Source of the DNA: Selaginella moellendorffii
Taxonomy: Eukaryota > Plantae > Lycopodiophyta
Assembly (NCBI RefSeq): GCF_000143415.4
Contig: NW_003314271.1
Coordinates: 2,028,806-2,092,805 of the forward strand
DNA length: 64,000 bases
Direction: 5' to 3'
Shown: positions 129 to 62,532 of the stretch, piece after piece
Position numbering within the stretch: position 1 is the stretch's first letter
Layout of the letters: each line of letters begins with the position of its first letter
The notes under the pieces: model-generated
Told to the model about the DNA's origin: nothing
Seen by the model: only the letters and a program-made list of their open reading frames with translations
Database searches by the model: none
Position numbers and translations under genes: made by a program

Positions 129-3100
129 TCAGACTGTTATTTTTTGCCTCCAACGCCTATACAATAATCTTGGAATTTCATCACTCTCCACACTATCAGG
201 ATTTAAACCCAATAGTAATGCCATCTCTTCTCTAATACGTCCACGCTCATGTTCAGTGGTCGAAGAACCCATCCGGTTGAGCAGATTATGGAGATGCGGA
301 TAGTGCTTGGCTAGACAATATACATGCCATAAATGATGACTGGTGTCTGTCCGATCAAATGGCTTTTGATATACCGTTCCATCTGCCATTTGGTTGATTT
401 CTGCACCCACCTCCTGGATTGGCCGGTTCTCTATCACCATCGCTCCAAGCCGTTTTGCAAGGTCCCCCAGAACATACGGTTTCTTCTCCCTAGTTTCCAT
501 ACTGCAAGAGATGGGGTGCATTGCATATGTGTGCATGTTTGCTGCAGTTTTAATCGGCGAGTCATCGATGATGAGGATTTCACTTGACCTAGCAGTCCGG
601 TTCATCACTACAGCCTCTGGCTTGACGAAGATGGGCTTGCTACCCCTCACATGGACCATAGTCAAGCAATCCTCCTACGTTAGGAGAAAGTCAAATGGTA
701 ATATTACTCGCATCTGATCGTGCATCATCTGTAGCAACGTTAATGCATTGTGGCGCATCATGGATGTCCAAACTCCCAATTGCAAATTGAACCCGACCCT
801 CTGTTTTAAGTGTCGCATGGTCATTATTAGATCCCGCAGTTTCTCCCGTGTGATTAATGTGAATCTGTCTCTTTTGACCAACTTGCGACCGCAGGCTTTG
901 GAGGGTGCAGTGACATTCGAGGACGAGCCACGCTCATGGGAGAAAAGGACACCGTTCAGATCAAAAACGATACAGTACCTTCGCCGTGACTCTGAAATGA
1001 AATGCGTCAGCATAAAAAATGGTACAAGTCAATTTTACCATCTACAATATTAGCGAATGGTGCTCCCGATGGTCGTTGAGAGGGTTTTGGTCGAGGAAAC
1101 GTGAAGGGCGGAAATACTCTCCTCTGCAATGTGGGGTCAATCGCATCCGATGGCGTGTGGGCACATGCTATTTCAACTGTAGACTCTGGTACAACTGGCT
1201 CAACAGTGGCATGGGGTGGTTCCGATGGCGTGTGATCACACGCCATTTCAGCTGATGCCTCCGTTGGCAAAGTGGACATGACCGAACAGGCAGCAGGGGC
1301 GGTGTAGGGAGGTTCCAACGGCACGTAGTCAGACGATTGGGCACACGTTGAGTCCGTTGGAAATGAGGATACGACTGGCTCGGCGGCTGGGGCGGCCTCA
1401 TGCGGGTCCAATGGCGCCTGGTCACCGTCAGTTGGATACGTGGACAAGATTGACTCAGTGGTATGGGCAGCATCAAGTGGAGCGTGGTCAGCTTGCTTGG
1501 CGTTGATATGGATAGTAGCCTCCACCAGCTCTGATGACTCTTGCAGGCAAGTAGAGTCCACTGGCGGATCTATATGCATGTCCAAATATCTCCCTTCGAT
1601 TGAGATGGTATCCTCCCTACTGGCTACTAAAAACAAACTCATTAGCACATTGAATCAACTATACTGTATTTACCATCAACTGCTATTGAGGAACTAGGAC
1701 CGATATCACTTGGGCGCACTGCTGATTCTGAAGGATTGGACATACGTTTCGACCCTTGCTTGGCACTATCCTTCCTCGACACTAAAGGCTAGAGTTTGTA
1801 TCTTAATTCAACTGAATAATCTCTACTTACCATTTGCTCTGCGACCTACATGGACAATGTTAGAAATAGTAAAAGGTTAGGAATGGATGTACTATTATTT
1901 ACCTGATGGTTTGTCTTGTATGACCTTCCTCCGCTGCTCTTTGGCCACCTCAGGCTGGCCATCGTTGTCATCATCGTCGTCGTCGTTATTGTGATCGTCA
2001 CCATTGTGAGGACCATCTAAGTCCTCTTCGTCCTCCTCTTCTTCGTCCTCCTCCTCTTTGTCCTCCTCTTCGTCCTTCTGCTCTTCTTGCTCATTATCTT
2101 TCTCTGGCTCCTCATCCCCCTCCTGCATTTCTTCCATAGGCTGCTCAGGCTGGATGGCTTGTTCTTCCAGGACCATCTTGGGAAAATCATCTGGCCGAGT
2201 CTCCATCTCAAAATACAAGACATCCATAGCCTGTTTTAGTGCGTGACCTAGGACTGTATCCTCACGCGACTGTCTTAACATGGTTTTTGCACGTTCTTGC
2301 ACCCTTCGAAGATGACGAGATGAGAAAAATGTGGCCCTGACTTGAAAAGCATCCCTCATCCATTCCATTGAGATTGGGGAAGGGGAGTCCGCCATAGGAA
2401 TCTGAGTCAGGAGGTGGTGACTGGCTGCTTTCACTCAGCCCTTGATCTGCAATGAATGGCATGAGCACACACGCCATAACCGCGAGGCATTACCTATCAT
2501 CTTTTCGTTGCCCTTCTTCCTTTTCGAATCAAACGCCTTTGATCCCGACGACTGTCCAACGTGCTTTCACTTTTTATGACCACTGTCAGTTTGAGCTTGG
2601 CTGGTGCTTGCCTGTTTTGCCTTTGAAGAAGTGTCTCCTGCAAGGAATGGCATGAGACCACACGCCATTGCAAATATAATTTGTACCTCCTTTTTTCCTA
2701 TTGCTTGTCTGTTTGTCCTTCTTTGACGCGCCACCAGTGCGCTTTTCAGTCCTCGTGTCTGAATATTCACAACGATCTATAATCAAAATGGCGTGAGGCC
2801 TCATGTGACCTTACCTTGTGCAGGTTGTGAGCTCGGCCCAACATGGGTATCTTCAACAGTAGCTGTTAACGCCGTTTCAGCATCTAGGGGTGGCCACGCT
2901 CCTGCATACAGAGCTTGTGAGATAACATTTAAACTTAAAGTGCGTACTCACCAGGTTCGCAGAGAAGATACTGTTTTTCTTTGGCAACTGTAATTATATG
3001 CTCCATTGAAGTCACTTCTTCAATGGAGTTTGTCACCGCAACACACAGGACACCCTTGAGTAGTGCGGCTCGAAAGAATAGTCCGCCGCAGTTGTACTCG

Positions 3101-5750
3101 ACAACGCATTTGCCCTTGGAGTCGGAAGCAGGTGACCCACCCGCTATTGCGTTGAAGACCCAGCTGAGCATTTCCCATGCTGCACCTGGAGCTTTCTCTG
3201 GATTCGAAAGCTCCATAGCCGTCTTCAGTTCCTCAGGCATGGGTAAATTGACCTCCCTCAGATCAATTCGATCGGCCTTGTCGAACGAAGCTGGGAAGTC
3301 ACTCCAGTCCCACTCTGCTGCAGGACCAATAACAAGGGTGAGTGTGAAGATGCGGACATTCGTCGGTACCTTCTTCTTAGCCATTATCCCATGGATCTCC
3401 TGCATCTCCTTGCCTTTCAACCGAGCCTTCACCTCGTTCAAGGCCTTCCAGAACTTGTGATAGGATTCGGAGTCGTAGATCATATAGCGGACTGAAGATT
3501 CCACCTCCGCAAGTCCCACTATTAAGTCAATGATGGAGCTGACTTCGTCTGCATGAGTGATCTCCTCGTTTGTGAAGTCCATCACACAAAAGATGTTCTT
3601 GACCTGCTCATCTCCGCGGGAAACGATGCTCCTCCACCTTTGATCCTCATCCGAATTCACGTATACCTGGTAAGGTTCTCGATAGGCCTCTGCTGCGGGG
3701 TCGAGCTGTTTCTGAAGCCGGCGGTCGACATCCCTCTTAATGAAATTTGGATACTGATCCAACTTCTCAGCTTTACTTTTCGTGGCATCCCGCAGCAGAT
3801 CGATGAACTTGGGGGCCCCCTTCACGTACTCGTCGATGTCTTCATTTGACAACTCCAGCTCTTCCATCATCTCTTGCATGGTGTCGATGCTCACCCTCTC
3901 CATGGCCACTTGCTCGAAGATCCAATCCTTCAATAGCGCATGAGCTCTCAGAGTCGTGCACAAGTCCTCGTATGTCACAATATGGCCGGGAGTCATTTTG
4001 GTGTTGTTGAAGACTACCTCACCACATAGAAGAGCATTAGCCACTGTCAGAAGGTCGTCGTCGTCTAGAGACCGCGAGAAACGCAAGGCGTTGAGCTTCA
4101 AATCATTGGGCTTCCGGCCGTCCTCCACACCCATTGAGTTTAGCAACTCCCCGTCATGGTACCTCCTCAGCACATCTACCCATTTGTCAAAAATAACTTT
4201 TGTCGCGAGTAGAATGTTATGGATGCTGAGTGTGTCATTGACCCCCAGTGTTTTCGAGAGAAGACTCGAGAATTCCTGCAATGGAAATGGCGTGAGGCCA
4301 CATGCTATGCCACATGCAACGAGGCTTACCTGCCAGGCGCTAGTTGCTAGTGCACGTCCTTGTCCTGGTTTTTGTGGCTTCTTCAGTTGAACCCAGAGCT
4401 TCCGTGTTCGTGCCAATGTCTCGTGCAGACCCGATTTGTAGCACGTTTCTTGCTTGACATTCTGCGCGTGGGAGATGGATATGATAGATCAGAGGGGCGA
4501 GTTGCCTTTTATCAGGCGGACAACTCTTGTCTTGAAGACTTTCTTCACCTCCTCGCCCACCATAATATCCACAACTATCTGTTGCATCGCCAAGCTAGAA
4601 TGCTGCCCGGAGACGACATAGAACTGGATGTTCTGATCGTCCAACACCTTCCTATTGATCAAGTCTGGAAACCTCGTCTCGCCCTTCATTGTTCGGTAGT
4701 AGGGGATCACGTCTGCGATGTCGGGTGTTACTGGACTTGCCAGCATCTTCTGCTTCAGTTTCTCCACCCACTCATCAGATACTAGCCTGTGGTTGTATTT
4801 TCTTTGGATCTTGATACGGCTCACGTCGATTGTATATACTTTGTTGGAATAGTAACAAGTACTATTATCTGCAACGATTTTTGCTGCCTCTTCTTGCTCT
4901 TTCTGCTCTTTGCGGCTCTTCTTTTTGGTGGGTGTAGTGTTCGAACCCGAGGCAATGGCATCACCGAGTAGCTTCTTTTTTGGAGCAGCAGAGTCGGACG
5001 TCAGCTTGAGCTTGACCACCCTTTTCTGCTTCGGGGTAGTTTCCAGATCGACCCCCTTCCCCTTTGCTTCGCAAACTGGAGGCACTCTCAACGGCTCAAT
5101 GTTGGAATATAGTTTTTGAACATCACCGTAGGTGAGGTCCGTGGATTCCATGTGATCTTCATAGACCCGCAGCGTCTTTGAAATTGTGGGCCTCCTGGAC
5201 AACCTCTCCCTAGCTCCCTCTAGGAATTCCTCATAGCCGCTGCCCCCCTCCGGGAAGCCGCTAGGATGTGCAAGGTGGATCTTGAAGGCGGACGCTGTCT
5301 CTACCACAAGTGCCAGTGCATATTCTTGCATGGAACTGCATGGAGTGTCTGTCACTTGGATGAGGATCCCCATGCATTCTTTTCTCCCACCATCTGTGTT
5401 GTACAGCCTCAGATCCTCGCTTTCCATCCCGAAAGTCCAACTGGTGAGCTCCTCCCCCTTCTCTGCATCCACATTGATAGTGGCTGGAAGAAGAACGCAA
5501 TTCCTCGCCTGTTCAGAAATGCACAACAATTATAGCTGACAGATGAAAAGCTAGCAGCTGGAAATAACGTGAGGCCACACGCCATTCACCACTGCATCAG
5601 ATGTCTTGAGGCTGCATCCTAAGATGGCGTGAAGCTACACGCCATCTGTAACCAGACTGCACTCGAGAGCCCAATCGGTGCATGCCAATGTTGCTACTGA
5701 ATGGCATGTGGCCTCATGCCATTTTCTACTTGGCCTAAAAGACTTACCAT
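129..5750 (-). pseudogene. Spliced cargo gene, copy 1: ParB/Srx-like + degenerate amino-MTase fold + low-complexity linker + FCP1/NIF-type HAD phosphatase
   Basis: Inverted twin of 50926-56505. Motifs: FYVVSGQHS (ParB-like), GKCVVEYNCGG..AALLKG (MTase motif I-like), IVFDLNGVL..WTS..IIDDSPIK (HAD). Lesions: TGA at 4489-4491, an 8-bp deletion near 2365, TAG at 675-677. Confidence 0.75.
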
Positions 5751-7993: not shown

Positions 7994-10634
7994 ATGGCCT
8001 CCGCAAGTGCGACGCATGTTCCCTCCGTGGATCTTAAGAACCGTGCTACATGGATTCAGGCAAAGGTGTTTCTAAACAACCCCGAGGGGGAGGTGGTAGC
8101 TGAGGGCTTAGCCACAGTTGTCGATCCAAGAGATGCGGTTGCTAATCAAGAATTGGGCTGGGATGATATTGGAGTTGCAATTTTAGAGGTTGTTGACACA
8201 GAAGAAAATAGTCTGACTATTGGAAGCATTGTGCGGTGGAAATTGAGGCACTTAGTGTTTGAGAATGTGAAGGATTCACAATTAAACACCACTACAACTG
8301 ATGACAGAACATCTCTTCATGGGAAAAGAAAGTACACCTTCCTAAAGCGCAGCCAAAGGGATCTGAGCAACGAACCGAAAAGGCAGAAAATGGCGATGGA
8401 GGTTTGAATGGTCTCGACAGTTGCTTGTTGCAAGAGGAGGTGCTGTCAACATGCTGATTGGGATGCTATTGAAGAGGAGAGAGCAAGATACAAGACATTG
8501 TCCTGGAAGGCAGCTCGCAATTTTGTGTATGAGGCATTACGGTCATCTGTTGATGCTTGAGAACATCAGGTGGGGGGCATGGTCTTCCAGAGGGGTTTGG
8601 TCTGCATGAAGGCATGGAGAATCATTTATGGAGTCCCTCAAACCACATTCTACAGAATCAAAACTGAGTTTGAGGAACAAAGGGTTCAACAGGCAGTCCA
8701 TGGGAACGACGGTACTCACAAAACCAGGGGTCATGTTGTATATGGAGAGGCAATCTTCAAGAGGTTTGTCGAGACATGTAGCGAGCAGCAACCACATAAA
8801 ACCCGCCTCTTGGAAGATGGAACTCGAGACACCCAACGAGTTCTCCCTTCCATGTATACCAAGGGGGCCATATTGGAAGATGTGAATCGGGAACTCTAGA
8901 GTAATGGCTACAGGAAGCTGAGCCAATCTAGATTTAGTAGATTGTGGAGCAACAGGTTCAGGGATGTGAGTATAGGAAAGTACTCCAGCTTTTCAAAGTG
9001 TGACGAGTGCACTGCTATCAAAATGGCTTTGTCGAAGAATTCTTGCATCGCTCAAGAGCGAGAGACGTTGGTGTAAGGAACCAACTCGCCGAGGTGTCGT
9101 AGGCTAAAGGAACCCCGAAAGCATGACCAAAATGACAAAGACTTCATCGGATGGGACCAAGTCAAAGATAGAGTCTGGAATCGAGTCCGAGACCGACTCT
9201 AGGACCGAGTTCGAGATAGAGTCCGGAATCGAGTCCGAGACCGACTCGGGGACCGAGTTCGAGTCCGAGTTCGAGACCAAGTTCGAGACGGAGTCCGAGA
9301 TCCGAAATCGGGTCCAAGACCGAGTCCGAAATCGAGTCCGAGGTCGGGCCCGAGATCGGGTCCGAGATCGAGTCCGCGATCGAGTCCGAGACCGAATCCG
9401 AAGTCGGATCCGAAATCGGATCCGAGATCGAGCCAGAGACTAAGTCCAAATACTAATACGGGTCAAGGGGTGAAAGCCCAAAGCGTGCGTCCCCCAGGGG
9501 GGGGGGGGGGGCTGCAGGGGGTTCCAAAAGTATAGTAGGGATAGTGAGGCCCAGGAACCAGTTTTGAAGGGACTCTCCAGTTGGGCTTCCAAACCGACTT
9601 GAGGTTGAGACTAGGACCGAGGGGCCTTGGGTGGGAGTGAGCATGGACTTGGCTGGTGCCGGAGGGGCCATCCAAGGAAGTGCTCAAGAGCAGCTCCCAC
9701 TCCCGAAAGGGAAACCAATTGCGGTGCTCCCGGCTCATGTGGAGTGGTGCCCCACTTGAGTACCATGCGACTCATTGGTCCTCACCCTTCCTAAGGGCTT
9801 GGGCCTTCCTTCGGGATGGAAGTGGGGGGCGAGAGGTACCCATACCGGGCCGCTAGGCCACGGTGTTTCGCCTCGACGTCCCGAAGCAAGTGTTGCACTC
9901 AAGACTTGGGATTTAGAGGGTCCCATGATCAAGTCTTGTGGTACCAAGGGATGTTAGGCACCTGGAAGCTTGGTGTGCTTGGCTGCTTGTGCTTGCGGGG
10001 AGTGTAGCCGAACCTTAGTCCAGTCTAACCCGGGGAGGGGGATTGGGAGTGATTTGGGAATCTGTGGAAGGATGGCTAACACTCCGTTGTTCGTGCAGTG
10101 AGTAGCTGAAACCAAGTAGGAGCTGGTACCATAGGCGAGAACCTTGGCAAGGGAACTTAGCAAAAGCCAAGGCAGTGTTGGACGGATAGACGAGGTAAGC
10201 TGGCAAATTGGAAAAGAAAAATTTGTGGCTTACAGTTGGTTAGAAGGCGGCTCGACCACAACATTGAGCAGAGAAGCTGCAGGACTGCATATTATTATAA
10301 CAGGATTCTCTCCATGGAGAGACCTAACTCTTACCTCTGCATCATCCACGACAAAATGGACCAGAAAAAGACGTGCTTACCTCGACTCAATCCTGCCCCC
10401 AAGGCAATCTCTTCATCCATGCAGCTGCCTGTGTCTCTGTTTGGCATAATCGCTCATGGGCATGGTGCCCAGAACTATGGGAACTTCTTTGTACCTCTAT
10501 GGGGTGGCGGGGGTGCAAACATGATGATTGCGTCCCTAGCAAAACACTTAAGGTCTCTGCAAAGTGCGCAGACTGAGCTGAACGGCCAACCCTTGCATAA
10601 GGCCCTTGTCGATCGAACCCCATACAGGTTCTAG
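7994..10634 (+). pseudogene. DUF7869/Sola-like DDD-type transposase, interrupted by a solo LTR and 3'-truncated
   Basis: One frame from 7994 to 9071 with three stops, each explicable by C>T (8405, 8558, 8897). Contains CCKRRCC, VCMKAW..YG, HGN and FSRLW..FSKCDEC. Removing the LTR plus one TSD rejoins ERETL-VRRRLDH in frame to IIHDKMDQKKT..HGHG. The expected DN..NKN and GHT..D motifs are absent. Confidence 0.75.
9072..10234 (+). mobile_element. Solo LTR of chromovirus family A
   Basis: TGTAAGG...GCTTACA with 5-bp TSD GTTGG (9067-9071, 10235-10239). Homologous to the LTRs at 15746, 20259, 36440 and 57288. Confidence 0.95.
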
Positions 10635-11169
10635 CAAATCTTACTTAAAGTTCAAGGTGAACAAGCCGAATATGAATTCATCGGATTGTTATAACAAATT
10701 GCGAGGTGATGGCATGAGGTGATACGCCATTTGAGAGTGGTAGCCATTCCTATATGAGGTGAGTGAAATATTTATTAGAAATACCTCATTCAATTGTGCA
10801 CTTCTAAGTCTTGGTCCACTCAATACTAAAATGTTATTTAGCATGTGGCTTCATGCCATTGCTCTCCACAATCATGCATTGAATTTTTCTATCCTTGCAT
10901 AATACTTCTCCATATATATAGCATGTGCGCACATGTGATATGGTTCATTAGGCCTAATATAGTGTGTGAGGTAAAACAAAGATGATGTGACATATGCATT
11001 TACCAATCACACGATAAATCTAATAATATGGCGTGTGGCCCATATTAATGGCACATAAACCCATATTGTGGGCTTACGTGCTTTATGTACCATCATTCCC
11101 TTGCAGCGTGTGTGTTGGTTTCCTTTTATAACACAACGAACTCCATATTTTAGGGTGAAGAGCGTTCTC

Positions 11170-11427: not shown

Positions 11428-12087
11428 GCTTATAATGGCGTGTGCCCTCATGCCATTTACTTGATCACCAAATACCTTTTTCCCTTTGCACTAGTATATC
11501 TTAATACCGGTCTGAGAAATAGAATGGCATGTGCCCTCAGGCCTTTTACTAAATCACCTTTGAAAGAAATGCAAGCCTCTATGTCGTAAAAAAAAGGTAC
11601 TAGAGAAATTCCTTAATAATATGAATGTTATTTAGTTTCATGAAAATACACTAAGGGTCAAATGAGTTAAATGACTTCTCCAGACTAGCAATGCCTCTTG
11701 CTACACCTTCACAATTAGATTCGTTAGAAAAAGATAACATTGAATAATATCTAAATGTTCTCACCATTAAGTTATATGTCTGGCTAATAGGAATGACATT
11801 CATCTTGGAAAGCTCACCACACGCTCAATGAACAAACAAATAGTGTGTGCGCGCATGCCATCGCTCTTCTTTAGCTTCAGATTCGGCTTGTTCACCTTGA
11901 CAATGAGATTTATTATACAACCAGATGGACTCAGTCTGGACACAAAGTCACTGCACTAGTCACCATGCCCCAGATATGTCTAGCTCCTGGACAAAAAACA
12001 TATAATTTCACGTCATTTTCAAATACTTGAAAATTTGTACCTAGTCCCATTTTACTGAATAAATCCCACTTTAACGAAATAGAGCTT

Positions 12088-36754: not shown

Positions 36755-36854
36755 NNNNNNNNNNNNNNNNNNNNNNNNNNNNNNNNNNNNNNNNNNNNNN
36801 NNNNNNNNNNNNNNNNNNNNNNNNNNNNNNNNNNNNNNNNNNNNNNNNNNNNNN
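36755..36854. other. Assembly gap (~100 N) with low-quality flanking sequence
   Basis: Run of N. 36855-37160 is a homopolymer-distorted version of the family A LTR. Confidence 0.95.
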
Positions 36855-46684: not shown

Positions 46685-48525
46685 CATTGATCTGGTAGTA
46701 TCCTAACTTTAGGTCAATCCTTGAGAAGTATTTTGCCTTTCCCAACCTATTGAACAGGTCCTTAATCCTTGGCAAAGGGTACTTGTTCTTCTTTATTTAC
46801 TGGTTTAGGGTTTAAGGGTTTTAGGGTTTAGGGTTTAGGGTTTAGCCAGTTTTTAGGGTTTGTTGAGCAACTGGTAGTCTATGCACATGCGCATAAAACT
46901 ATCTTTCTTTTTCATAAATAACACTGGGGCCCTATATGGTGACTTGCTCAACCTAACATACCCTTTGTTCACCAACTCTTCTAGTTGGCGCTTGAGCTCC
47001 TCGAGTTCTTTTTCGTTCAAATGATAGGGTGAACGAACCATTGCCTTAGCACCCTCGACCAGTTCAATCTTATGTTCAATCAGTCTTGTGGGGGCAACCC
47101 TGCCAATAGCTCCTCCAGCATGGTATCTTGGAATTGGTCCAACACCCGTTAGATCATTAAAGGTATTTCTTCCGTTCGCATTTTTTGTCACTCTTCACTG
47201 AGTAAACATAAAAATGTTGCTTTGGTTCTTTTAGTGAGTTGCCCTTTCGTGAACACTAGGCTTAAGCAGGAGTCTTTGGCCTTACATTGCCTTACCTTTA
47301 GATCCTATGCCTCCACCCTAGATCGTTCTCCCCGGGCATTTGCCAGTACCACAGGGTTCCTACCTTGTCCATGCAGGGCTTCTATGAACCGATTGAACCA
47401 ATCCATCCCGAAAATTACATTAAATCCCGCCATGTCCAACACGATAAAACCCATGTCTACTTTCCATGTCCCTACTTTGACTCTCGCTTGTCGAAGTACC
47501 TCATCAGTGCTTTGGTTACCTTGAACAAACTCTATAGTCCTTGGTTCACCCAACTACTGCACCGTTAATCTAGCTTGCCGGACTATGTTTGCAACCACAA
47601 AATTATTCGAAGCACCCGTGTCAATAAGGATCTTAACAAAGCTACCTTTGAGCTTCCCTCGAAGGGTTAGTAAATGTCGCAAACAACTCTCTACCAAAGT
47701 TGCTCGTGTAATGAGTAACTTTGAGCTAGGGACCTCAATTTAGATTTCACCTAACTTAATGGCCATATTGGCTCTGGCCTTCTTCGGGTAGGGACATTCC
47801 CGCGAAAAGTGTCCCACTTCACCACAGTTATAGCATATATTGTTTCCCACACTGCTAGTAGACTTGGCTTTCTTATCTGTGGGTTTGTCTATTTTTTGCT
47901 TGACTCCCTCACGTACTTGCTCGTTGGCCACCGGATTTGCCTTTCTAGAACCCCGAGGACTCATTCTTAGAGAATCCAACGCTTCCTTGTAGTTAGTCGG
48001 GTTCCAACGCATTATCTCCCCGCGAGCCCAGGTTTGCAAGCCTGATATGAATGCATGGAACGCATCCATATCACTCATATCTGTGACAAGTATCCTTTTT
48101 GCCATAAACCCATGCACATACTCTTGAATGGTTCTGGTTTGCTTTAGCCTACTCAGCTCATCCCTTAGGTGCAGAGTAGCATTCGAATGAATGTAAGTCG
48201 TGCGAATCCTCGCCTTCATCATTTCCCAAGTGGCCACCGGTCCTTCGTTGGCCTCTGTCGTTCTCCACCAAGATTTGGCATTATCTACCAAGTATGGTTT
48301 TGCACATCTGAGCTCGGTAACTGCAACACTCGGAAGTAGTCCTCTATATCGTAAAACCAATCCTTCGCCACCTTATAGTCATTCACTTCCTTGAAAACCA
48401 GTGGGGGCTTTGGTTTGTACTTGAGAACTGCTTGAAAGATTGATTTCACTTCAGTTTGTTTGACCTTGTTTGGTTCTGCCTCATTCCCTACCGAAGGGTC
48501 CGCACTTTCTGCACTGCCAGCATCT
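46685..48525 (-). pseudogene. Family A (A2) gag, protease and N-terminal RT remnant
   Basis: [37 protein letters not shown]. Continues into the leader at 56954 after the DNA transposon. Confidence 0.88.
46802..46859 (+). repeat. Interstitial telomeric (TTTAGGG)n insertion inside RT
   Basis: About 6 imperfect TTTAGGG units, absent from the homologous RT positions at ~13655 and ~24420. Confidence 0.9.
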
Positions 48526-49298
48526 AAGCTCTATTTCGTTAAAGTGGGATTTATTCAGTAAAATGGGACTAGGTACAAATTTTCAAGTATTTGAAAATGA
48601 CGTGAAATTATATGTTTTTTGTCCAGGGGCTAGATATATCTGGGGCATGGTGACTAGTGCGGTGACTTTATGTCCAGACTGAGTCCATCTGGTTGTATAA
48701 TAAATCTCATTGTCAAGGTGAACAAGCCGAATCTGAAGCTAAAGAAGAGCGATGGCATGCGCGCACACACTATTTGTTTGTTCATTGAGCGTGTGGTGAG
48801 CTTTCCAAGATGAACGTCATTCCTATTAGCCAGACATATAACTTAATGGTGAGAACATTTAGATATTATTGTGAAGGTGTAGCAAGAGGCATTGCTAGTC
48901 TGGAGAAGTCATTTAACTCATTTGACCCTTAGTGTATTTTCATGAAACTAAATAACATTCATATTATTAAGGAATTTCTCTAGTACCTTTTTTTTACGAC
49001 ATAGAGGCTTGCATTTCTTTCAAAGGTGATTTAGTAAAAGGCCTGAGGGCACATGCCATTCTATTTCTCAGACCGGTATTAAGATATACTAGTGCAAAGG
49101 GAAAAAGGTATTTGGTGATCAAGTAAATGGCATGAGGGCACACGCCATTATAAGCCTAAGCGCTAGTGGACACCTCCTTTTTGGTACTCTCAGCGGTACT
49201 ATCATCCTTCTCCAGCCTGAGATACATCTGCTCGGCATCTGCCTCTTACAGCATTTGCCCAGAAAGGGCATCTTTCTTCACGCAGCATTTGCCACATG

Positions 49299-49331
49299 TT
49301 TAGGGTTTAGGGTTTAGGGTTTAGGGTTTAG
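49299..49331 (+). repeat. (TTTAGGG)4+ tract inside the DNA transposon
   Basis: Four full units plus TTTAG. Copy 1 has two units plus a partial at 6736-6755. Confidence 0.9.
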
Positions 49332-50925
49332 CAATTTAGTAGCTTGATAAACATGCAAATACAGAACTTGATGCAAAATCCTTTGATATGTCACAATGTC
49401 CCTAGGACCATAAACACATTTCAATAGAGAGGGTCCTTTCATTTCATAACTCCTTACGTAGATCTTGGTAAAACCAGAGTTAGTGAAGTTAGTTTCTTGT
49501 GATCCCACATCTGATTGTGATGTCCCTTTGCAGTGTCGATGGAAAGGTCAATGCACACTAAACTGTAAAATCTTGGAGAAAAATAACGGTCGGATCTATG
49601 GCAAATGCCCCTGAAACATTGTAAGGCTCGTGTGGTCTCATGTGGTGTCCGATCGAGATGCTTCTTTGCAGAGTCATCAAGAAAGACATTGTATAACATT
49701 CTGTAAAATCTAGTTGCGATCTAACGGTTGGATCTCCAGAAAACTCAAAAAAATCTCGCGCGTGTCAGAATATTCTAGGAATATACTCCTATGTGCCCCT
49801 GAAAATGGCATGCGGCCCCACGCCATTCAAGAGATAACGCCAGATGACGCCGAGAATTTTTTGGTGCATTTTTTGGGTTCAAAATTGCATGAGCCCACAC
49901 GCTATAAAGTTTATCTTTGCCAAATAGAGAAAAGTTTATCTGTGTCGTGTGAGGTAGTTACAGTCCTTTGTGCTCGCCATCTGCCTCTTGCAGCATTTGC
50001 ACTGAAAGGGAATTTTTCTCCATTCAGCATTTGGCCCTGAAAATGGCATGCGCCCACACGCCATTCAAGGAATAACGCCATAGGACGCCTGGATTTTTGG
50101 GTTTAAAATGTTTAGGGTTTTTTGGGTTTTTTCAAAATATTTTGGGTCCAACGTTTTTTGGGTTTCTTTGGTTCAAAATTGCATGAGCCCACACGCTATA
50201 ATATTGATTTGAGAGAAAAATAGAAACAGATAGAATTTCTTTATTTAGCTGAACATCTGCCATTTTTGGAAATACAAGATGCTTTGGAATATCCAATCAT
50301 GCATGGTATAAATATAGCGAGGGTATTAAATGATATCCCAATCATGATCTTTCTTTTGGATTTCGCGTGCATGCAGTCCGAGGAATGATGACGTTGCGGA
50401 TTTCTTTTGGATTTTGCGTGCTTGCATGCGCGCGGCAATCCAGAAATTAATGGTGGCGCCCAAGTCCGAGGAATGATGACGTGGCGGGATTACCAACCGT
50501 TGTGACATTTCGCGCGTGTGAGGTTAGGTTTTGCATTTTGCTTCGTACTCGCGCTCGCGCTCGCATCACACTCGCGCTCGCATCGCGCTCCCACTCGCGA
50601 TCACGCTCACATTCGCGCTCATCTACCTTCTCTACAGGTTTCTCGTGTGCATCGGCGTCCACTCGCGCTTGCATCACACTCGCGCTCGTATCGCGCTCGT
50701 GTGCATCGGCGTCCACTTCAAGACACACCCAGTTTGTAACTTCGCCGCCAACTCCGCCGCCCACTCCGCCACCCACACGCAGCCCACTTGGCGTCCCGGG
50801 AGATTTCAGCGCCACTCTCCAACTGTAAGTGGCAGAGTAGCCTTGCTGCTACGATCCGCTGCACATACAGTGCACATTCGCCAGCGAGTCCGGCCTCGAT
50901 TGTCACGGCCTCCATTCGGCTTCAA

Positions 50926-53900
50926 ATGGTAAGTCTTTTAGGCCAAGTAGAAAATGGCATGAGGCCACATGCCATTCAGTAGCAACATTGGCATGCACCG
51001 ATTGGGCTCTCGAGTGCAGTCCGGTTACAGATGGCGTGTAGCCTCACGCCATCTTAGGATGCAGCCTCAAGACATCTGATGCAGTGGTGAATGGCGTGTG
51101 GCCTCACGTTATTTCCAGCTGCTAGCTTTTCATCTGTCAGCTCTAATTGTTGTGCATTTCTGAACAGGCGAGGAATTGCGTTCTTCTTCCAGCCACTGTC
51201 AATGTGGATGCAGAGAAGGGGGAGGAGCTCACCAGTTGGACTTTCGGGATGGAAGGCGAGGATCTGAGGCTGTACAACACAGATGGTGGGAGAAAAGAAT
51301 GCATGGGGATCCTCATCCAAGTGAAAGACACTCCATGCAGTTCCATGCAAGAATATGGACTGGCACTTGTGGTAGAGACAGCGTCCGCCTTCAATATCCA
51401 CCTTGCACATCCTAGCGGCTTCCCGGAGGGGGGCAGCGGCTATGAGGAATTCCTAGAGGGAGCTAGGGAGAGGTTGTCCAGGAGGCCCACAATTTCAAAG
51501 ACGCTGCGGGTCTATGAAGATCACATGGAATCCACGGACCTCACCTACGGCGATGTTCAAAAACTATATTCCAACATTGAGCCGTTGAGAGTGCCTCCAG
51601 TTTGCGAAGCGAAGGGGAAGGGGGTCGATTTGGAAACTACCCCGAAGCAGAAAAGGGTGGTCAAGCTCAAGCCGACGTCCGACTCTGCTGCTCCAAAAAA
51701 GAAGCTACTCGGTGATGCCATTGCCTCGGGTTCGAACACTACACCCACCAAAAAGAAGAGCCGCAAAGAGCAGAAAGAGCAAGAAGAGGCAGCAAAAATC
51801 GTTGCAGATAATAGTACTTGTTACTATTCCAACAAAGTATATACAATCGACGTGAGCCGTATCGAGATCCAAAGCAAATACAACCACAGGCTAGTATCTG
51901 ATGAGTGGGTGGAGAAACTGAAGCAGAAGATGCTGGCAAGTCCAGTAACACCCGACATCGCAGACGTGATCCCCTACTATCGAACAATGAAGGGCGAGAC
52001 GAGGTTTCCAGACTTGATCAATAGGAAGGTGTTGGACGATCAGAACATCCGGTTCTATGCCGTCTCCAGGCAGCATTCTAGCTTGGCGATGCAACAGATA
52101 GTTGTGGATATTATGGTGGGCGAGGAGGTGAAGAAAGTCTTCAAGACAAGAGTTGTCCGCCTGATAAAAGGCAACTCGCCCCTCCGATCTATCATATACA
52201 TCTCCCACGCGCAGAATGTCAAGCAAGAAACGTGCTACAAATCGGGTCTGCACGAGACATTGGCACGAACACGGAAGCTCTGGGTTCAACTGAAGAAGCC
52301 ACAAAAACCAGGACAAGGACGTGCACTAGCAACTAGCGCCTGGCAGGTAAGCCTCGTTGCATGTGGCATAGCATGTGGCCTCACGCCATTTCCATTGCAG
52401 GAATTCTCGAGTCTTCTCTCGAAAACACTGGGGGTCAATGACACACTCAGCATCCATAACATTCTACTCACGACAAAAGTTGTTTTTGACAAATGGGTAG
52501 ATGTGCTGAGGAGGTACCATGACGGGGAGTTGCTAAACTCAATGGGTGTGGAGGACGGCCGGAAGCCCAATGATTTGAAGCTCAACGCCTTGCGTTTCTC
52601 GCGGTCTCTAGACGACGACGACCTTCTGACAGTGGCTAATGCTCTTCTACGTGGTGAGGTAGTTTTCAACAAGACCAAAATGACTCCCGGCCATATTGTG
52701 ACATACGAGGACTTGTGCACGACTCTGAGAGCTCGTGCGCTATTGAGGGATTGGATCTTCGAGCAAGTGGCCGTGGAGAGGGTGAGCATCGACACCACGC
52801 AAGAGATGATGGAAGAGCTGGAGTTGTCAAATGAAGACATTGACGAGTACGTGAAGGGGGCCCCCAAGTTCATCGATCTGCTGCGGGATGCCACGAAAAG
52901 TAAAGCTGAGAAGTTGGATCAGTATCCAAATTTCATTAAGAGGGATGTCCACCGCCGGCTTCAGAAACAGCTCGACCCCGCAGCAGAGGCCTATCGAGAA
53001 CCTTACCGGGTATACGTGAATTCGGATGAGGATTAAAGGTGGAGGAGCATCGTTTCCCGCGGAGATGAGCAGGTCAAGAACATCTTTTGTGTGATGGACT
53101 TCACAAACGAGGAGATCACTCATGCAGACGAAGTCAGCTCCATCATTGACTTAATGGTGGGACTTGCGGAGGTGGAATCTTCAGTCCACTATATGATCTA
53201 CGACTCCGAATCCTATCACAAGTTCTGGAAGGCCTTGAACGAGGTGAAGGCTCGGTTGAAAGGCAAGGAGATGCAGGAGATCCATGGGATAATGGCTAAG
53301 AAGAAGATACCAACGAATGTCTGCATCTTCACACTCGCCCTTGTTATTGGTCCTGCAGCAGAGTGGGACTGGAGTGACTTCCCAGCTTCGTTCAACAAGG
53401 CCGATCGAATTGATCTGAGGGAGGTCAATTTACCCGTGCCTGAGGAACTGAAGACGGCTATGGAGCTTTCGAATCCAGAGAAAGCTCCAGGTGCAGCATG
53501 GGAAATGCTCAGCTGGGTCTTCAACGCAATAGCACCTGCTTCCGACTCCAAGGGCAAATGCATTGTCGAGTACAACTGCGGCGGACTATTCTTTTGAGCC
53601 GCACTACTCAAGGGTGTCCTGTGTGTTGCGGTGACAAACTCCATTGAAGAGGTGACTTCAATGAAGCATATAATTACAGTTGCCAAAGAAAAACAGTATC
53701 TTCTCTGCAAACCTGGTGAGGACGCACTTTAAGTTTAAATGTTATCTCACAAGCTCTGTATGTAGGAGCGTGGCCACCCCCAGATGCTAAAACGGCGTTA
53801 ACAGCTACTGTTGGGCCGAGCTCACAACCTGCACAAGGTAAGGTCACGTGAGGCCTCACGCCATTTTGATTATAGATCGTTGTGAATATTCAGACACGAG

Positions 53901-56505
53901 GACTGAAAAGCGCACTGGTGGCGCGTCGAAGAAGGACAAACAGACAAGCAATAGGAAAAAAGGAGGTACAAATTATATTTGCAATGGCGTGTGGTCTCAT
54001 GCCATTCCTTGTAGGAGACACTTCTTCAAAGGCAAAACAGGCAAGCACAAGCCAAGCTCAAACTGACAGTGGTCATAAAAAGCGAAAGCACGTTGGACAG
54101 TCGTCGGGATCAGAGGTGTTTGATTCGAAAAGGAAGAAGGGCAACGAAAAGATGATAGGTAATGCCTCGCGGTTATGGCGTGTGTGCTCATGCCATTCAT
54201 TGCAGATCAAGGGCTGAGTGAAAGGAGCCAGTCACCACCTTCTGACTCAGATTCCTATGGCGGACTCCCCTTCCCCAATCTCAATGGAGAGGTACAATGG
54301 ATGAGGGATGCTTTTCAAGTCAGGGCCACGTTTTTCTCATCTCGTCGTCTTCGAAGGGTGCAAGAACGTGCAGAAACCATGTTAAGACAGTCGGGTGAGG
54401 ATACGGTCCTAGGTCAAGCACTAAAACAGGCTATGGATGTCTTGTATTTTGAGATGGAGACTCGGCCAGATGATTTTCCCAAGATGGTCCTGGAAAAACA
54501 AGCCATCCAGCCTGAGCAGCCTATGGAAGAAATGCAGGAGGGGGATGAGGAGCTAGAGAAAGATAATGAGCAGGAAGAGCAGAAGGACGAAGAGGAGGAC
54601 AAAGAAGAGGAGGACGAAGAAGAGGAGGACGAAGAGGACTTGGATGGTCCTCACAATGGTGACGATCACAATAACGACGACGACGATGATGACGACGATG
54701 GCTAGCTTGAGGTGGCCAAAGAGCAGTGGAGGAAGGTCATACAAGACAAACCATCAGGTAAATAATAGTACATCCATTCCTAACCTTTTACCATTTCTAA
54801 CATTGTCCATGTAGGTTGCAGAAGAAATGGTAAGTAGAGATTATTCAGTTGAATTAAGATACAAACTCTAGCCTTTAGTGTCGAGGAAGGATAGTGCCAA
54901 GCAAGGGTCGAAACGTATGTCCAATCCTTCAGAATCAGCAGTGCGCCCAATAGCAGTTGATGGTAAGTACAGTATAGTCGATTCAATGTGCTAATGAGTT
55001 TGTTTTTAGTAGCCAGTAGGGAGGATACCATCTCAATCGAAGGGAGATATTTGGACATGCATATGGATCCGCCAGTGGACTCTACTTGCCTGCAAGAGTC
55101 ATCAGAGCTGGTGGAGGCTACTATCCATATCAACGCCAAGCAAGCTGACCACGCTCCACTTGATGCTGCCCATACCACTGAGTCAATCTTGTCCATGTAT
55201 CCAACTGACGGTGACCAGGCGCCATTGGACCCGCATGAGGCCGCCCCAGCCGCCGAGCCGGTCGTATCCTCATTTCCAACGGACTCAACGTGTGCCCAAT
55301 CGTCTGACTACGCGCCGTTGGAACCACCCTACACCGCCCCTGCTGCCTGTTCGGTCATGTCCACTTTGCCAACGGAGGCACCAGCTGAAATGGCGTGTGA
55401 TCACACGCCATCGGAACCACCCCATGCCACTGTTGAGCCAGTTGTACCAGAGTCTACAGCTGAAATGGCATGTGCCCACACGCTATCGGATGCGATTGAC
55501 CCCACATTGCAGAGGAGAGTATTTCCGCCCTTCGTTTCCTCGACCAAAACCCTCTCAACGACCATCGGGAGCACCATTCGCTAATATTGTAGATGGTAAA
55601 ATTGACTTGTACCATTTTTTATGCTGACGCATTTCATTTCAGAGTCACGGCGAAAGTACTGTATCGTTTTTGATCTGAACGGTGTCCTTTTCTCCCATGA
55701 GCGTGGCTCGTCCTTGAATGTCACTGCACCCTCCAAAGCCTGCGGTCGCAAGTTGGTCAAAAGAGACAGATTCACATTAATCACACGAGAGAAACTGCGG
55801 GATCTAATAATGACCATGCGACACTTAAAACAGAGGGCCGAGTTCAATTTGCAATTGGGAGTTTGGACATCCATGATGCGCCACAATGCATTAACGTTGC
55901 TACAGATGATGCACGATCAGACGCGAGTAATATTACCATTTGACTTTCACCTAACGCAGGAGGATTGCTTGACTATGGTCCATGTGAGGGGTAGCAAGCC
56001 CATCTTCATCAAGCCAGAGGCTGTAGCGATGAACCGGACTGCTAGGTCAAGTGAAATCCTCATCATCGATGACTCGCCGATTAAAATTGCAGCGAACACG
56101 CACACATATGCAGTGCACCCCATCTTTTGCAGTATGGAAACTAGGGAGAAGAAACCGTATGTTCTGGGGGACCTTGCAAAACGGCTTGAAGCGATGGTGA
56201 TAGAGAACCGGCCAGTCCAGGAGGTGACTGCAGAAATCAACCAAATGGCAGATGGAACAGTATATCAGAAGCCATTTGATCGGACAGACACCAGTCATCA
56301 TTTATGGCATGTATATTGTCTAGCCAAGCACTATCCGCATCTCCATAATCTGCTCAACCGGATGGGTTCTTCGACCACTGAACGTGAGCGTGGACGTATT
56401 AGAGAAGAGATGGCATTTCTATTGGGTTTAAATCCTGATAGTGTGGAGAGTGATGAAATTCCAAGATTATTGTATAGGCGTTGGAGGCAAAAAATAACAG
56501 TCTGA
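50926..56505 (+). pseudogene. Spliced cargo gene, copy 2: ParB/Srx-like, degenerate amino-MTase, linker, FCP1/NIF HAD phosphatase (~1,600 aa, 11 exons)
   Basis: GT-AG introns 50929-51167, 52347-52400, 53716-53765, 53838-53893, 53966-54014, 54159-54205, 54758-54814, 54830-54878, 54963-55009 and 55596-55642 give phase-consistent joins. Lesions: stops at 53034, 53595 and 54703, and a 2-bp deletion near 55533. Confidence 0.78.
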
Positions 56506-57287
56506 GATGGCATGTATTTATTTAAAAATGTAACTTATTATGGCATGGGGTTCCATGCCATTGTATTAATATTAAAAGACAATTCTTTGAGAGGATTTGC
56601 ATTATACTAGAAGTGTTACAGCATGTTATTGTAAGTCTACAAAGTTGTTTTATTAATAAGGGGAAAGTAAAGATTGAATGGGGACTTGGGCTCCACCTAG
56701 ACTCGGAGCAACTGAGCCAATATTAAAAAAGGATGGAAAGAAATTGGACGACGATGACAAGGAGAAGAGAGAGGTGAAGTAGTGGCAGGGGGAGGAGAAG
56801 TGATTGAGTAGACATTTCCTTGTTTAAAATAAAATGGCATGTGCCTCAATGCAGTTGAATTTTGTTATATTTATATACTATATAAAGGTTTGGAAACCTT
56901 ATTTTACAAGTGGGATAATGACAATTCCCACTTTAACGAAATAGAGCTTATCTGCAGTCTTTTGTTTTTTCTTCCACTTCTCTTAATGCTTTAGCTTGCG
57001 TATGAGAGTCTCTAGCAAGGCATTGGTCTGTGCCAACTGTCCTTCTAGAACGTCCAATCGAGCCTTGGACAACCGAACCTCACCACCGGACTCCTGTTTA
57101 GAAGTTTCCTCATTGAAGTCCTCCTCATGCAAGGATTCCTCATCCATAGCCTATTGTTCGACCGGAGGCTCTAGTTCTAGAGGAGGTTTTGTCTCTGCCT
57201 TGGTTCGTTTACGCCCTCCCTTCGCCATCTCCTAGCAATTCGCCTTTATCTTTTGCTAGAACTGAAGAAAAATCTCCAATACCAAAT

Positions 57288-59084: not shown

Positions 59085-61029
59085 GTCAATACAATTGCTA
59101 ACTAGCAAATGCACGAATGCCAATAACACAAAGTCATAGCCAAATCATCAACACCATCTTCATCAAGACTAATGAAACTTAATATCAATCCTACGAAGAG
59201 ACATCTCATTTCATTTGCATCTCAACATCAACAATGTTAATAACAGGGCATCACTTCAATGCTATCAACACCATAACAAAGCTAGAAGAAAGCAAGAGTG
59301 ACACATAGCGTATCACCACTCAAAGCTCTTTAGCAACCAAGCTAACCAAGTATCTGAGACCAATTCTCCAATAAAACTCAGTTGCAGATAACACATCATC
59401 AAGGAGTGACTCACCACATCCAAGACTCAATAAAATCCAACACTACGAACTAAACGCAACCAAATGACATCGATAGAGATAGAGTCAAAATGCCAATATG
59501 GAAAATCCATGTAAGTTTAACGACACAAACCTTTGCAACACCATTCGGTAAAGCAAACTCATCACTACTAAATCTTCATCGAGTGAAGCAAGTGTCAAAA
59601 GTCCTTGACAAAGGCTACAAGCAATTACTAGTTGCAAAGTAACTAACAATCACCCTTCAACTTGCCTTCACAAGACCCAAACACTAAACTCATGCCATCG
59701 AGTTGTATACTTGTCCAACATGAACGTAATACTTCAGCACGAGATAAAGGTTCATGGATAAGCACGAACTAAATGACTACTTGAATCCAACTCAACTGCA
59801 ATAAGCTTATTAACATGTCTAACCAATAGCTCTGAGCATGCCTTGAAGAGGCTAGTTATGCATGACCAACACTTAGTCAAAACTAAAGTGAAGACCACGA
59901 GATGGACTCATATCGGTACACAACTTCCTCATAGACAAAGCTATAGTACAAGTACTAACATCTCAACCTCAAACAACTAAATTGAACATCACCATCTTCA
60001 ATCAAGGCACAGGGCTACCAAGACTAAGTCAAGATCAGTGAAAGCTCACTACTCTTATGAAGTCTAACAAAATGCAATGTGCAACCTGCTGCCAAGCATA
60101 ATGTTACAAAAGAAAGGCACAAGGGTCACCTTTCTAGAAAAATGTAATGGCCACTTTTTTACACCAACTCTAGACTCTATCTAATTCAATTGCCTTAGCC
60201 ACAAAAGTCAACATCTCTTTCGAGCTGCATCATACAAACTACCTACTAAGGTTTAGGCTAACTGAAGTCAACTCCAACCCTTTCACTAATTTATACTAGC
60301 TTACGAAAATAGAATGGTTTTTGAGCAAAATGATTAATAGATCAGCCATTGGAAAAGTTTAAGAAAATTTATGGAAAAATTTCCATCCTAGAAAAAGAAT
60401 GACTATCAGTCCAAAAATGCAAACTTTCAAGATTCAACCAGCTTCCTCCTACCAACAACTTTATATAAGTTCACCTCAACACAAATTCTTATGACCCATA
60501 GTATGTCTAAGTATCAAACATCTTTGCCCATACTTCTGACATTCAACACCGATATCCACAAAATGCAAAATGAACATCTAAAACTTGATCACAAAGACCA
60601 TATTTTCAGATATCCACATTGGGGATGGTCCAAAGTTGAGTTGAGCTCATGAGTTGAGCTCAATTTAGCTCAAGTCAATGCTAGTCAACATAGTCAACCA
60701 TAAGTTTTATAAGGAAATATTAAGTCAGAAAAATGTTATTCTTTGGTGAACTTGAAATTTATGAGTTTAAGTATCAATGGTTCAGAGAGATTTTTATTTT
60801 TTGAATCTTTCTAATGCAGTTTATATAATTTCTAGAATTAGAAGTTTGTCTGAACCCATAGAAATTTTTGGGCTTTATTGGTCCCAAATAAAATGGGAAT
60901 ATTGAAGTTCGAATGAACCGGAAAATTTCTATTGTCCATTTCAACATTTTAACATTTCAACAATTGACCAGAAATATATAAATAATTCGAAACACTGATT
61001 CACTCGTTCATTCTTTAGGGTTTACAGAG

Positions 61030-61278
61030 ATGGGAAGCAAGGAAGAAGACAAAAAATCTGTAAGTAGTTCTAGCATACAGAAATGTGAGAATGTGAATTT
61101 TGTTTCACTACCACAATCTCTATATTACACGCCTGGTCCTTATTACCCATTCGGGAATGTGGAGACCACTATCACTATTGATAAAAATGCTCCTGTTACT
61201 TCCGAAACAACAATCCAGAGCAAGAGAAAAGAAGAAATGGACAGCACAGCGGAAAGCACTAATAAATCCACTCTATAA
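61030..61278 (+). CDS. Small (82 aa) protein homologous to 11170-11427
   Basis: VSLPQSLYYTPG, NAPVTSETTIQSK and DSTAEST are shared. Confidence 0.6.
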   Translation: MGSKEEDKKSVSSSSIQKCENVNFVSLPQSLYYTPGPYYPFGNVETTITIDKNAPVTSETTIQSKRKEEMDSTAESTNKSTL

Positions 61279-61719
61279 ACCTTTCAATGGCTTTTGTAAT
61301 CCACTAAAATATTATAAAAAAATGTAAGTTTTTTATATATATCTTATTCCTTTTGATATGTTTTGTCTTTGCAAAGATATATGATGTAGACAAATCAAAG
61401 AATTAAATCTATATATGATTTTGGGATTGAAAGGTAATCTTGCAAAAAGGCATACTTGCGTGCTTGTGTATATTCGCTATTATTATATATGGCAGGCCAA
61501 CTATATAAAATAAGGCTACATATTAATTATATGCTAGTTTTTAGCTTCTAAAACCCTATAGCCACTTGTTTCTCATAGTAGGTTGTAATTACTAAGACTG
61601 ACAATTATCATTCACTATAATGTCATGTCATAATAAAACATCATTCCCGAGATTGAAATATAGTATATTAATGAGAGAATTCTTATTGCTAGGAAGTTTA
61701 ATTCTTCTTGTGTGTTGCA

Positions 61720-62274
61720 ATGGTTAGGAAGAAGTTTACTTTTGGTCCTGAAGGCCTCTCATATGAGTCTCCACCTCCATCTCCAATCTCAACCAATAAT
61801 CCACCTTCACCTCTACGCAACAATCCTCCTTTTCATTTTGAGAGCTGTTGTGAGGCTCTTCCATTTGCGACCTCGAGTGCAACTGAACAAAAACTCCTTC
61901 CTTATGATGTTGTTAAAAAAGTTGGATTGCCTCCAATGCTTCAAGAGCGATGTCAATATTTTCTTCAAGATCTTGCTCCAGATATGGCAGGGGAGCTTAA
62001 TGTAGATACATACTATCTTCAGTGTCCTATATGCAACTTTTATTTAAACAAGACAGATGGTTGCATGGGTTTGGTAAATTTTATTGAGCATTGTCGCAAA
62101 TGCCCAAGAGCGGGTTTGGAAGGTGTGCACGCGTGGATGTATAAGAAAATCAAGAAAGAATTAAAAACACACAGCTATTATGATTTCATGGTGGAGAACA
62201 ATATTCCATTGGTGAACACTGCATCAGTAAGTGCTGAATATGGGATATTTAGGCCACCCTTTAATGTAATGTGA
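61720..62274 (+). CDS. Cys/His-motif (putative zinc finger) protein, tandem paralog 1
   Basis: YYLQCPICNFYL..GCMGL..F.EHCRKC..GVH.WMYKKIKKEL, with a Pro-rich N-terminus. Confidence 0.6.
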   Translation: MVRKKFTFGPEGLSYESPPPSPISTNNPPSPLRNNPPFHFESCCEALPFATSSATEQKLLPYDVVKKVGLPPMLQERCQYFLQDLAPDMAGELNVDTYYLQCPICNFYLNKTDGCMGLVNFIEHCRKCPRAGLEGVHAWMYKKIKKELKTHSYYDFMVENNIPLVNTASVSAEYGIFRPPFNVM

Positions 62275-62532
62275 AAGTCATGCATAGTTTTTTCAAAAGG
62301 TTAATTCTTTATGAGTAAAGTGGAGAATCTTATATTTTTGAGAATGATATTATTCTAGCATGTATAAAGATATTATTATATATACAAGTGGTTCTGACAC
62401 TGTTATAATTCTGAAGTCCCATTTTTGAGACTGACAATTTAAACTTTCAAGAACCCCTAGATCTTTTCTTAGTATAAATACCAACAAGGGATGCTTTCAA
62501 CATTGAAATTTCAGTTTGTTTAGAGTGTAGGA

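Follow-up and report, generated by a model that had tools for sequence, protein, structure and literature searches.

A probable transposon accessory gene in Selaginella moellendorffii predicted to join a ParB fold, a methylase-like domain and a NIF domain

The element and its two copies

The DNA examined here, referred to as the window, is a 64,000-nucleotide stretch of Selaginella moellendorffii contig NW_003314271.1 (assembly GCF_000143415.4, positions 2,028,806 to 2,092,805 of the forward strand), and all positions below are counted from its first letter. It has the look of plant nuclear DNA and contains many Gypsy elements (Pfam gag, protease, reverse transcriptase, RNase H and integrase pieces). 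Two copies of a DNA transposon, A and B, were located in it, each carrying a broken gene in which a ParB/Srx fold, a methylase-like domain and a NIF domain follow one another. An earlier note, made from the letters alone, had described a three-domain spliced gene at 50926..56505; the gene is supported by the present analysis, but its transposon context, the element ends and an associated 22-bp palindrome had been missed. The features of the two copies are as follows.

48526..56949 (+): copy B of the element, 8.4 kb, a deletion derivative lacking the transposase
48526..48552 (+): left terminal inverted repeat of copy B; the same end lies at 12087 in copy A
56923..56949 (-): right terminal inverted repeat of copy B
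48522..48525: left 4-bp target-site duplication, ATCT, inside a Gypsy element
56950..56953: right 4-bp target-site duplication, ATCT
48752..56561: sixteen copies, in copy B, of the palindrome ATGGCRTG-N6-CAYGCCAT
12061..12087 (-): terminal inverted repeat of copy A, at a different insertion site; the other end lies beyond the window
129..5750 (-): accessory gene, copy A, the second copy and also broken
7994..10635 (+): gene for the copy A transposase, pointing away from the accessory gene, with stops, a solo long terminal repeat (LTR) insertion and its 3' part deleted
9072..10234: Gypsy solo LTR that interrupts the copy A transposase, with a 5-bp duplication

Copy B shows the terminal inverted repeats and target-site duplication of a cut-and-paste DNA transposon. 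When it was removed together with one ATCT, the flanks matched, gap-free, a Gypsy copy at 15.4 kb that has no such insertion. Assuming a TA duplication, or none at all, introduces a 4-nt gap into that alignment, and TA was rejected. Copy A keeps 4.5 kb that copy B has dropped, including the transposase; in the left arm of copy B, copy-A position 11368 is joined to copy-A position 6847 at a short microhomology, and the transposase is lost.

In copy A, a DDE/D transposase gene lies within the inverted repeats. Its product shares 32-34% identity over ~340 residues with three metagenome loci (L001-L003); two of these were scanned, match DUF7869 at E 1.9e-47 and 2.7e-29, and carry the three acidic motifs. 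The copy A transposase itself gives a weak DUF7869 match (E 0.1) and retains just the first acidic motif in the window, the remainder having been deleted. Viral contigs scanned for the transposase gave no match. Contigs from three other sequencing runs join across the solo LTR site and lack the LTR, and two of them carry ~1.5 kb more than copy A between 10628 and 10826. Combining copy A with pieces of these contigs gives a usual autonomous element of an inferred ~12.8 kb. As a side observation, L001-L003 are metagenome contigs without the palindrome, too short to show a neighbouring gene; their near-complete DUF7869 transposases share 42-46% identity with the piece in the window.

The element is best described as Sola-like. 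A 4-bp target-site duplication is the rule in the Sola superfamily and is what copy B shows; DUF7869 is a domain that we take to be linked to Sola. Membership of Sola1 in particular is putative, on the length of the duplication. That the copy B gene is an accessory gene of a DNA transposon with terminal inverted repeats is very likely. Two minor features of the element were also recorded, namely a short run of plant telomere-type repeats (TTTAGGG) in its arm (49297-49330) and CG-rich 17-nt repeats 5' of the accessory gene (50537-50700), whose length differs between the copies. Rfam gave no matches within 48500-57000.

The accessory gene

50926..56505 (+): accessory gene, copy B, a pseudogene
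50926-50928, 51168-52346, 52401-53715 and 53766-53837 (+): exons 1 to 4
53894-53965, 54015-54158, 54206-54757 and 54815-54829 (+): exons 5 to 8
54879-54962, 55010-55595 and 55643-56505 (+): exons 9 to 11
51168..51780 (+): N-terminal region followed by a Lys-rich stretch, no Pfam match
51816..52232 (+): ParB/Srx-fold domain, box II SRQHS in copy B and SGQHS in copy A
52401..52973 (+): conserved all-helical domain behind the ParB fold, candidate DNA-binding domain
53000..53715 (+): beta-class N6/N4 methylase-like domain, DFT at the catalytic position (53097), S-adenosylmethionine (SAM) motif YNCGG
53766..55595 (+): long low-complexity linker (basic, acidic, Pro-rich), exons 4 to 10
55657..56109 (+): NIF/HAD-type domain, motif I DLNGV, motif IV DDSP

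The ten GT-AG introns proposed in the earlier note, nine of them of 47-57 nt, were recovered, as was its 15-nt micro-exon at 54815-54829. In order, the introns of the eleven-exon model measure 239, 54, 50, 56, 49, 47, 57, 49, 47 and 47 nt, and introns 3-10 are all in phase 1. With copies A and B aligned, the shared frame runs to 1,644 codons, in agreement with the predicted fusion of ~1,600 amino acids, but neither copy is intact. Nor do all open reading frames (ORFs) join in phase, as had been stated: copy B is interrupted by stops at 53034, 53595 and 54703 and by a frameshift at 55532, and copy A by three stops and one frameshift at positions other than those of copy B.

The splice path was assessed with strong donors and introns of 44-62 nt only, against 300 dinucleotide shuffles per start. 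From four starts, the stop-free spliced reach was 1107, 1799, 502 and 1773 nt, which was equalled by 0, 0, 1 and 0 of the 300 shuffles, respectively; since shuffles almost never equal this reach, the path exceeds chance. The position of intron 2 coincides with an 18-residue gap in those homologues that span it, and several single-exon homologues stop at the intron 2 junction. Contigs of one run, presumed to be of RNA, read through the introns with no joints and are uninformative on splicing. In copy B, exon 10 also has a second open frame; it was taken as chance, as copy A does not keep it open. It is likely that the ParB fold, the methylase-like domain and the NIF domain belonged to a single protein.

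Domains of the predicted protein

A profile built from homologue N-termini misses the N-terminal region of the window gene. For the region that follows (51780-53033), an AlphaFold2 model built from 31 sequences reached a predicted local distance difference test (pLDDT) score of 77. Against 48161 chains, VIA-align returned PadC as its best match (Z 9.4, root-mean-square deviation (rmsd) 3.0, 99 residues), and its top eight matches were all of the ParB/Srx/SerK/SbnI type (Z 9.4 to 6.0), with the next, unrelated, match at 4.3. The top Foldseek matches in the PDB were Noc (E 4e-3), ParB, KorB, PadC and Srx, although no PDB match reached E 0.001; the viral matches were ParB-like, three of them at E 0.001 or better, including a phage ParB at 7e-4. 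No Pfam ParB match was found with the window ORFs, and neither the ParB piece nor its alignment found a relative in metagenome, viral or prokaryote contigs. The ParB/Srx core suggested by the earlier note is thus borne out by predicted structure and by both structural searches. In a tree of 13 ParB domains, the window sequence was unplaced, on a long branch. Behind the fold, the helical domain is kept in Selaginella, Riccia and other homologues; the KorB alignment extends into it loosely, to model residue 319 with rmsd 10.9, and the Noc alignment extends loosely too.

The box II motif quoted in the earlier note, SGQHS, is real in copy A, but copy B reads SRQHS. The arginine of the GxxR motif is found in none of the 26 homologues that carry the motif (GQHS, GQHT or RQHS), many of them near-identical Riccia copies, with the register taken from the sequence motif and not from a residue-level superposition. 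An R-to-A change in GxxR abolishes nucleoside triphosphate binding in those ParB folds that have been tested (PMC12704722). Because the arginine is absent in all 26, hydrolysis of cytidine triphosphate (CTP) is unlikely. As a separate observation, the nearest ESM Atlas clusters to 51780-52346 were fungal DUF3723 clusters (0.95), followed by a ParB_N cluster (0.92); language-model features thus suggest that fungal DUF3723-associated proteins may hold a ParB-like fold too. DUF3723 turns up in Starship papers, and no paper combining DUF3723 and ParB was found.

For the methylase-like domain, a profile made from homologues only, with no window sequence, ranked the copy-A segment best of 1267 ORFs (E 2.4e-6). 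The family profile gave M.RsrI as its best PDB match (E 1.7e-4 and 4.9e-5) and recovers a permuted Rossmann fold with motif IV ahead of motif I; a Riccia homologue, KAL3675584.1, matches PF01555 at E 5.8e-4, under the curated cut-off. On its own, the window segment has no Pfam methylase match, searches of PDB sequences with single ORFs gave just weak unrelated matches, and a single-sequence fold of the region reached a pLDDT of 36. A (D/N/S)PP(Y/F/W) motif occurs in neither window copy and in none of the 24 homologues, among which close Riccia copies are again numerous. The catalytic position reads DFT in the window and DLT, DVT, DLR, DAT, DSA or GLL in all 24 homologues, in keeping with the inactive-looking methylase described at the outset. 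The quoted segment GKCVVEYNCGG stands in copy A, but copy B has GKCIVEYNCGG followed by a stop; in copy B, the helix ahead of motif I is also shortened and one glycine position is lost.

The earlier note had further aligned this segment with a methylase at 63 kb. A multiple alignment places the two colinearly, but the direct alignment is not significant, its best local scores being equalled by 1646 and 843 of 2000 shuffles; the family profile does not find the 63-kb methylase, and a profile-profile comparison returned a probability of 2.6%. The latter gene (63207-64000, -) contains introns, is cut by the window end and encodes a beta-class methylase with DMPD at the catalytic position (PF01555 E 1.7e-4, PHROG methylase E 2.3e-6); its family differs from that of the accessory gene's domain.

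The C-terminal domain matches Pfam PF03031 (NIF) at E 5.9e-6 and 26.5 bits, above the cut-off of 21.8, and the HAD motifs DLNGVL, WTS, K and DDSP listed earlier can all be read in the sequence. FCP1/SCP enzymes carry DxDx(T/V). The corresponding DLNGV (at 55672 in copy B, identical in copy A) and the DVEGL of Riccia depart from it, the second Asp being Asn here and Glu in Riccia, and NCBIfam gave a weak HAD-IIIC match (E 0.009) and no FCP1 model. The link to phosphatases of the RNA polymerase II C-terminal domain (CTD) drawn in the earlier note is therefore not upheld.

Palindrome, homologues and decay

Allowing two mismatches, as in all counts unless stated, the palindrome occurs 35 times in the window, 19 times in copy A and 16 times in copy B; the remaining 44.7 kb and 30 simulated windows contain no copy. 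If four mismatches are allowed, 48 palindromes are found, 40 of them within the two elements. The sites are spread over the left arm, the region separating the two genes, introns 1, 2, 5 and 6, exon 10 and the sequence 3' of the accessory gene, with intron 4 added at a looser threshold. We incline to the view that the palindrome is a putative binding site of the accessory protein.

Homologues were found by a full HMMER search, in which ten of the 13 rows were true relatives; three (P0001, P0006 and P0012) were low-complexity or repeat matches and were dropped. The named relatives are from Selaginella and Riccia sorocarpa, whereas word-index protein searches with the window ORFs gave no match. 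Riccia KAL3675584.1 (R1sor_026150) carries SGQHS, PF01555 and NIF (E 1.9e-5) in the same order as the window gene, and a search with it found 24 Riccia sorocarpa proteins on several large contigs. Two of these 24, together with P0028, combine the ParB motif, the methylase motif and NIF. Another Riccia protein, P0052 (R1sor_012722), is named 'BAH domain-containing', which hints at an alternative chromatin-reader fusion. The Selaginella proteins P0002 and P0014-P0016 are near-identical models on two scaffolds with the helical and methylase-like parts only, and could be truncated models or domesticated copies.

The stretch 50237-56631 matches 3-6368 in reverse at 95.8% identity when the window is compared with itself. 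Over the accessory gene, copies A and B differ by 112 substitutions in 5572 aligned bases, with pN (nonsynonymous) of 0.021 and pS (synonymous) of 0.020, and both read as pseudogenes in neutral decay. The differences affect 9.5% of CG, 4.8% of CHG and 1.4% of CHH sites; decay mostly at CG and CHG sites argues that the host methylated both copies. Contigs of other runs cover both the accessory gene and the transposase and, among the breaks listed, are free of 53034 and 55532 of copy B and of three in copy A. The accessory-gene stretch is present in 20 of 24 listed runs, 19 of which hold at least half its words, from five named studies; as low-coverage runs assemble long contigs, a high-copy repeat is suggested, although depth is not a copy number.

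Interpretation

The broken accessory gene is probably one for a non-methylating scaffold, because the ParB arginine, the DPPY motif and the second NIF Asp are all missing; this scaffold would bind the 22-bp palindrome of its own element. The helical domain behind the ParB fold would act as a dimer in reading the two halves of the palindrome, and the protein would coat sites in both arms, in the shared promoter region and in its own introns. Such coating could bring the element ends together or regulate the two divergent promoters, so helping the element to move or to stay expressed. The dead methylase may serve as a structural or nucleic-acid-contacting module, and the NIF domain as a weak enzyme or a phosphopeptide-binding module. 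By analogy, the accessory TnpA of En/Spm binds subterminal motifs.

Several points weigh against this interpretation. The modelled helical domain resembles a ParB-type DNA-binding domain loosely at that same rmsd of 10.9, the exon junctions are predicted from the DNA, and the Riccia and Selaginella homologues are known here as proteins, so that any link of theirs to a transposase is presumptive. In the contigs of other runs, the accessory and transposase genes never fall on one contig. Given that the copies appear to have been methylated by the host, any anti-silencing effect would have been short-lived. A NIF profile from the Riccia copies misses the NIF ORF of the window, so the fusion may have arisen twice; a common origin in Riccia and the window is likely.

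It is also the case that the transposase might bind the palindrome instead, with the accessory protein helping through chromatin or protein interactions and not reading the site. Transposases bind subterminal repeats in many cut-and-paste elements, and the palindromes cluster in the left arm and near the transposase promoter. However, palindromes are also found well away from the ends, in one exon and five introns of the accessory gene; the palindrome-binding ParB, Noc and KorB share with the accessory protein the arrangement of a ParB fold with a helical domain behind it, and algal elements combine ParB genes with inverted-repeat arrays. We regard this alternative as rather unlikely.

A division into two cargo genes, a ParB-methylase protein of ~840 residues ending just past 53715 and a separate NIF gene, would follow if intron 3 were retained, since a stop then comes a few codons past exon 3. 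The junctions are drawn from sequence, and no likeness can be detected between the NIF domains of Riccia and of the window. Speaking against it are eight phase-1 introns in a row, which have strong sites and keep one frame in both copies beyond what shuffles give, and Riccia gene models that fuse identical domains in identical order; the division is improbable. Comparably doubtful is a bolder extension of the scaffold idea, in which a widespread and so far undescribed Sola-like lineage of seed-free plants would have a self-recognition system of parS/ParB type, with a CTP-independent, ParB-derived coat on a palindrome of its own bringing a fused HAD phosphatase to the element; changes to Pol II or chromatin phosphorylation would then have an anti-silencing effect that drove its high copy number.

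It is slightly harder still to credit an active NIF phosphatase, tethered to the element, that alters CTD or chromatin phosphorylation and so escapes silencing. The nucleophile Asp, the motif II Thr/Ser, the Lys and the motif IV Asp are retained, and liverwort relatives keep the domain, but the second Asp is replaced, NCBIfam gave no FCP1 match and the copies seem to have been methylated. Very improbable is an active methylase marking the element with N6-methyladenine or N4-methylcytosine, a role proposed for algal proteins in PMC12477816: a beta-class fold and a recognisable SAM-binding strand remain, but the catalytic motif is gone from both copies and all 24 homologues, and copy B has lost part of the helix ahead of motif I along with a glycine position. 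A host gene or captured host fragment, which the many short introns and the annotation of Selaginella homologues as ordinary loci might suggest, can largely be set aside, as the gene lies inside inverted repeats with a target duplication, occurs as two insertions in one window, decays neutrally, is at least half represented in 19 runs and has the layout of a published algal transposon.

The scaffold interpretation bears on a wider question. Self-recognising helper genes in plant transposons are few and informative, as they show how selfish DNA handles host silencing, and in this family both the protein and its candidate 22-bp site are defined, and a relative is available in a liverwort, so that self-binding can be tested directly. 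The family would also account for the Riccia gene models labelled 'FCP1 homology domain', as probable transposon genes and not CTD phosphatases.

Other features of the window

A small ORF at 60982-61275 (+) shares 58% identity over 62 residues (E 2e-16) with an ORF of copy A (11170-11427, +), and a related element with some of the same cargo may thus occupy 59-64 kb. Two tandem duplicated ORFs at 61702-62274 and 62524-63075 (+; 72% DNA identity) contain CxxC and HCxxC motifs and are probable zinc fingers; neither gave a convincing Pfam match, nor the first a PHROG match. An assembly gap of 100 N lies at 36755-36854.

Comparison with known systems

The family of the window gene includes the Riccia sorocarpa 'FCP1 homology domain-containing' proteins, which likewise have SGQHS, helical, methylase-like, linker and NIF parts in the same order, and Selaginella LOC9650508, the Selaginella models covering the middle part only. 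These relatives are ~22-27% identical to the window gene and carry automatic annotation only. With the FCP1/SCP/CPL CTD phosphatases, the window gene has NIF (PF03031) in common, but it departs from DxDx(T/V) and has no FCP1 family match. It shares the ParB-CTPase fold with bacterial and phage ParB, Noc and KorB, but lacks the GxxR arginine and a ParA and is intron-rich and eukaryotic; no close relative of its ParB piece was found in viral or prokaryotic collections. Fusion of ParB to PF01555 is described as frequent in phages (PMC12704722), and the ParB-linked methylases of algae and fungi listed in the consulted passages of PMC4738411 do not include the window family.

In the literature on plants, Sola1 is listed in Physcomitrella (PMC9033089), Ginger and Sola together make up 9 of 3203 active plant clusters (PMC12973397), and no defining Sola details were found in the parts seen of PMC4455052, PMC5751038 and PMC5199201. 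Bostrychia Plavaka elements, according to bioRxiv 10.1101/2025.02.11.637652, have inverted-repeat arrays beside a ParB accessory gene. Their PAG2/PAG3 resemble the window family in the ParB accessory protein, the inverted-repeat arrays and a PF01555 methylase gene within the element, but the transposase is of EnSpm type, ParB is fused to a 2-oxoglutarate oxygenase, the methylase is on a separate gene with SET, and the arrays are tandem, whereas single palindromes are dispersed in the window.

The closest published system is Sola1-1_Ec32 of Ectocarpus, for which PMC12477816 describes a 4-bp duplication and, on the other strand from the transposase, a gene for a 1104-amino acid ParB + N4/N6 methylase protein, proposes self-binding and self-modification, and cites similar green and red algal proteins. 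Helper genes of ParB + methylase type on Sola1 elements have thus already been reported from algae. Both are large DNA transposons with a 4-bp duplication and an opposite-strand accessory gene of ParB-like + N4/N6 methylase type. Sola1-1_Ec32 is from a brown alga, with 21.5 kb, 282-bp repeats and a methylase predicted to methylate, and a phosphatase is not mentioned in the text seen; the window family is from a land plant, with ~12.8 kb, ~27-bp repeats, a protein of ~1,640 amino acids, degenerate methylase and ParB motifs and a C-terminal NIF domain. No paper on a land-plant element with such a protein, or on the NIF fusion, was found in a search that left most subscription journals and Repbase entries outside its scope. 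Within the literature searched, neither the occurrence in land plants nor the joining to NIF nor the loss of catalytic residues has a counterpart. The window family extends the algal ParB-methylase helper design to land plants, in a form which suggests that enzymatic functions were lost from a retained fold while a phosphatase-like domain was gained.

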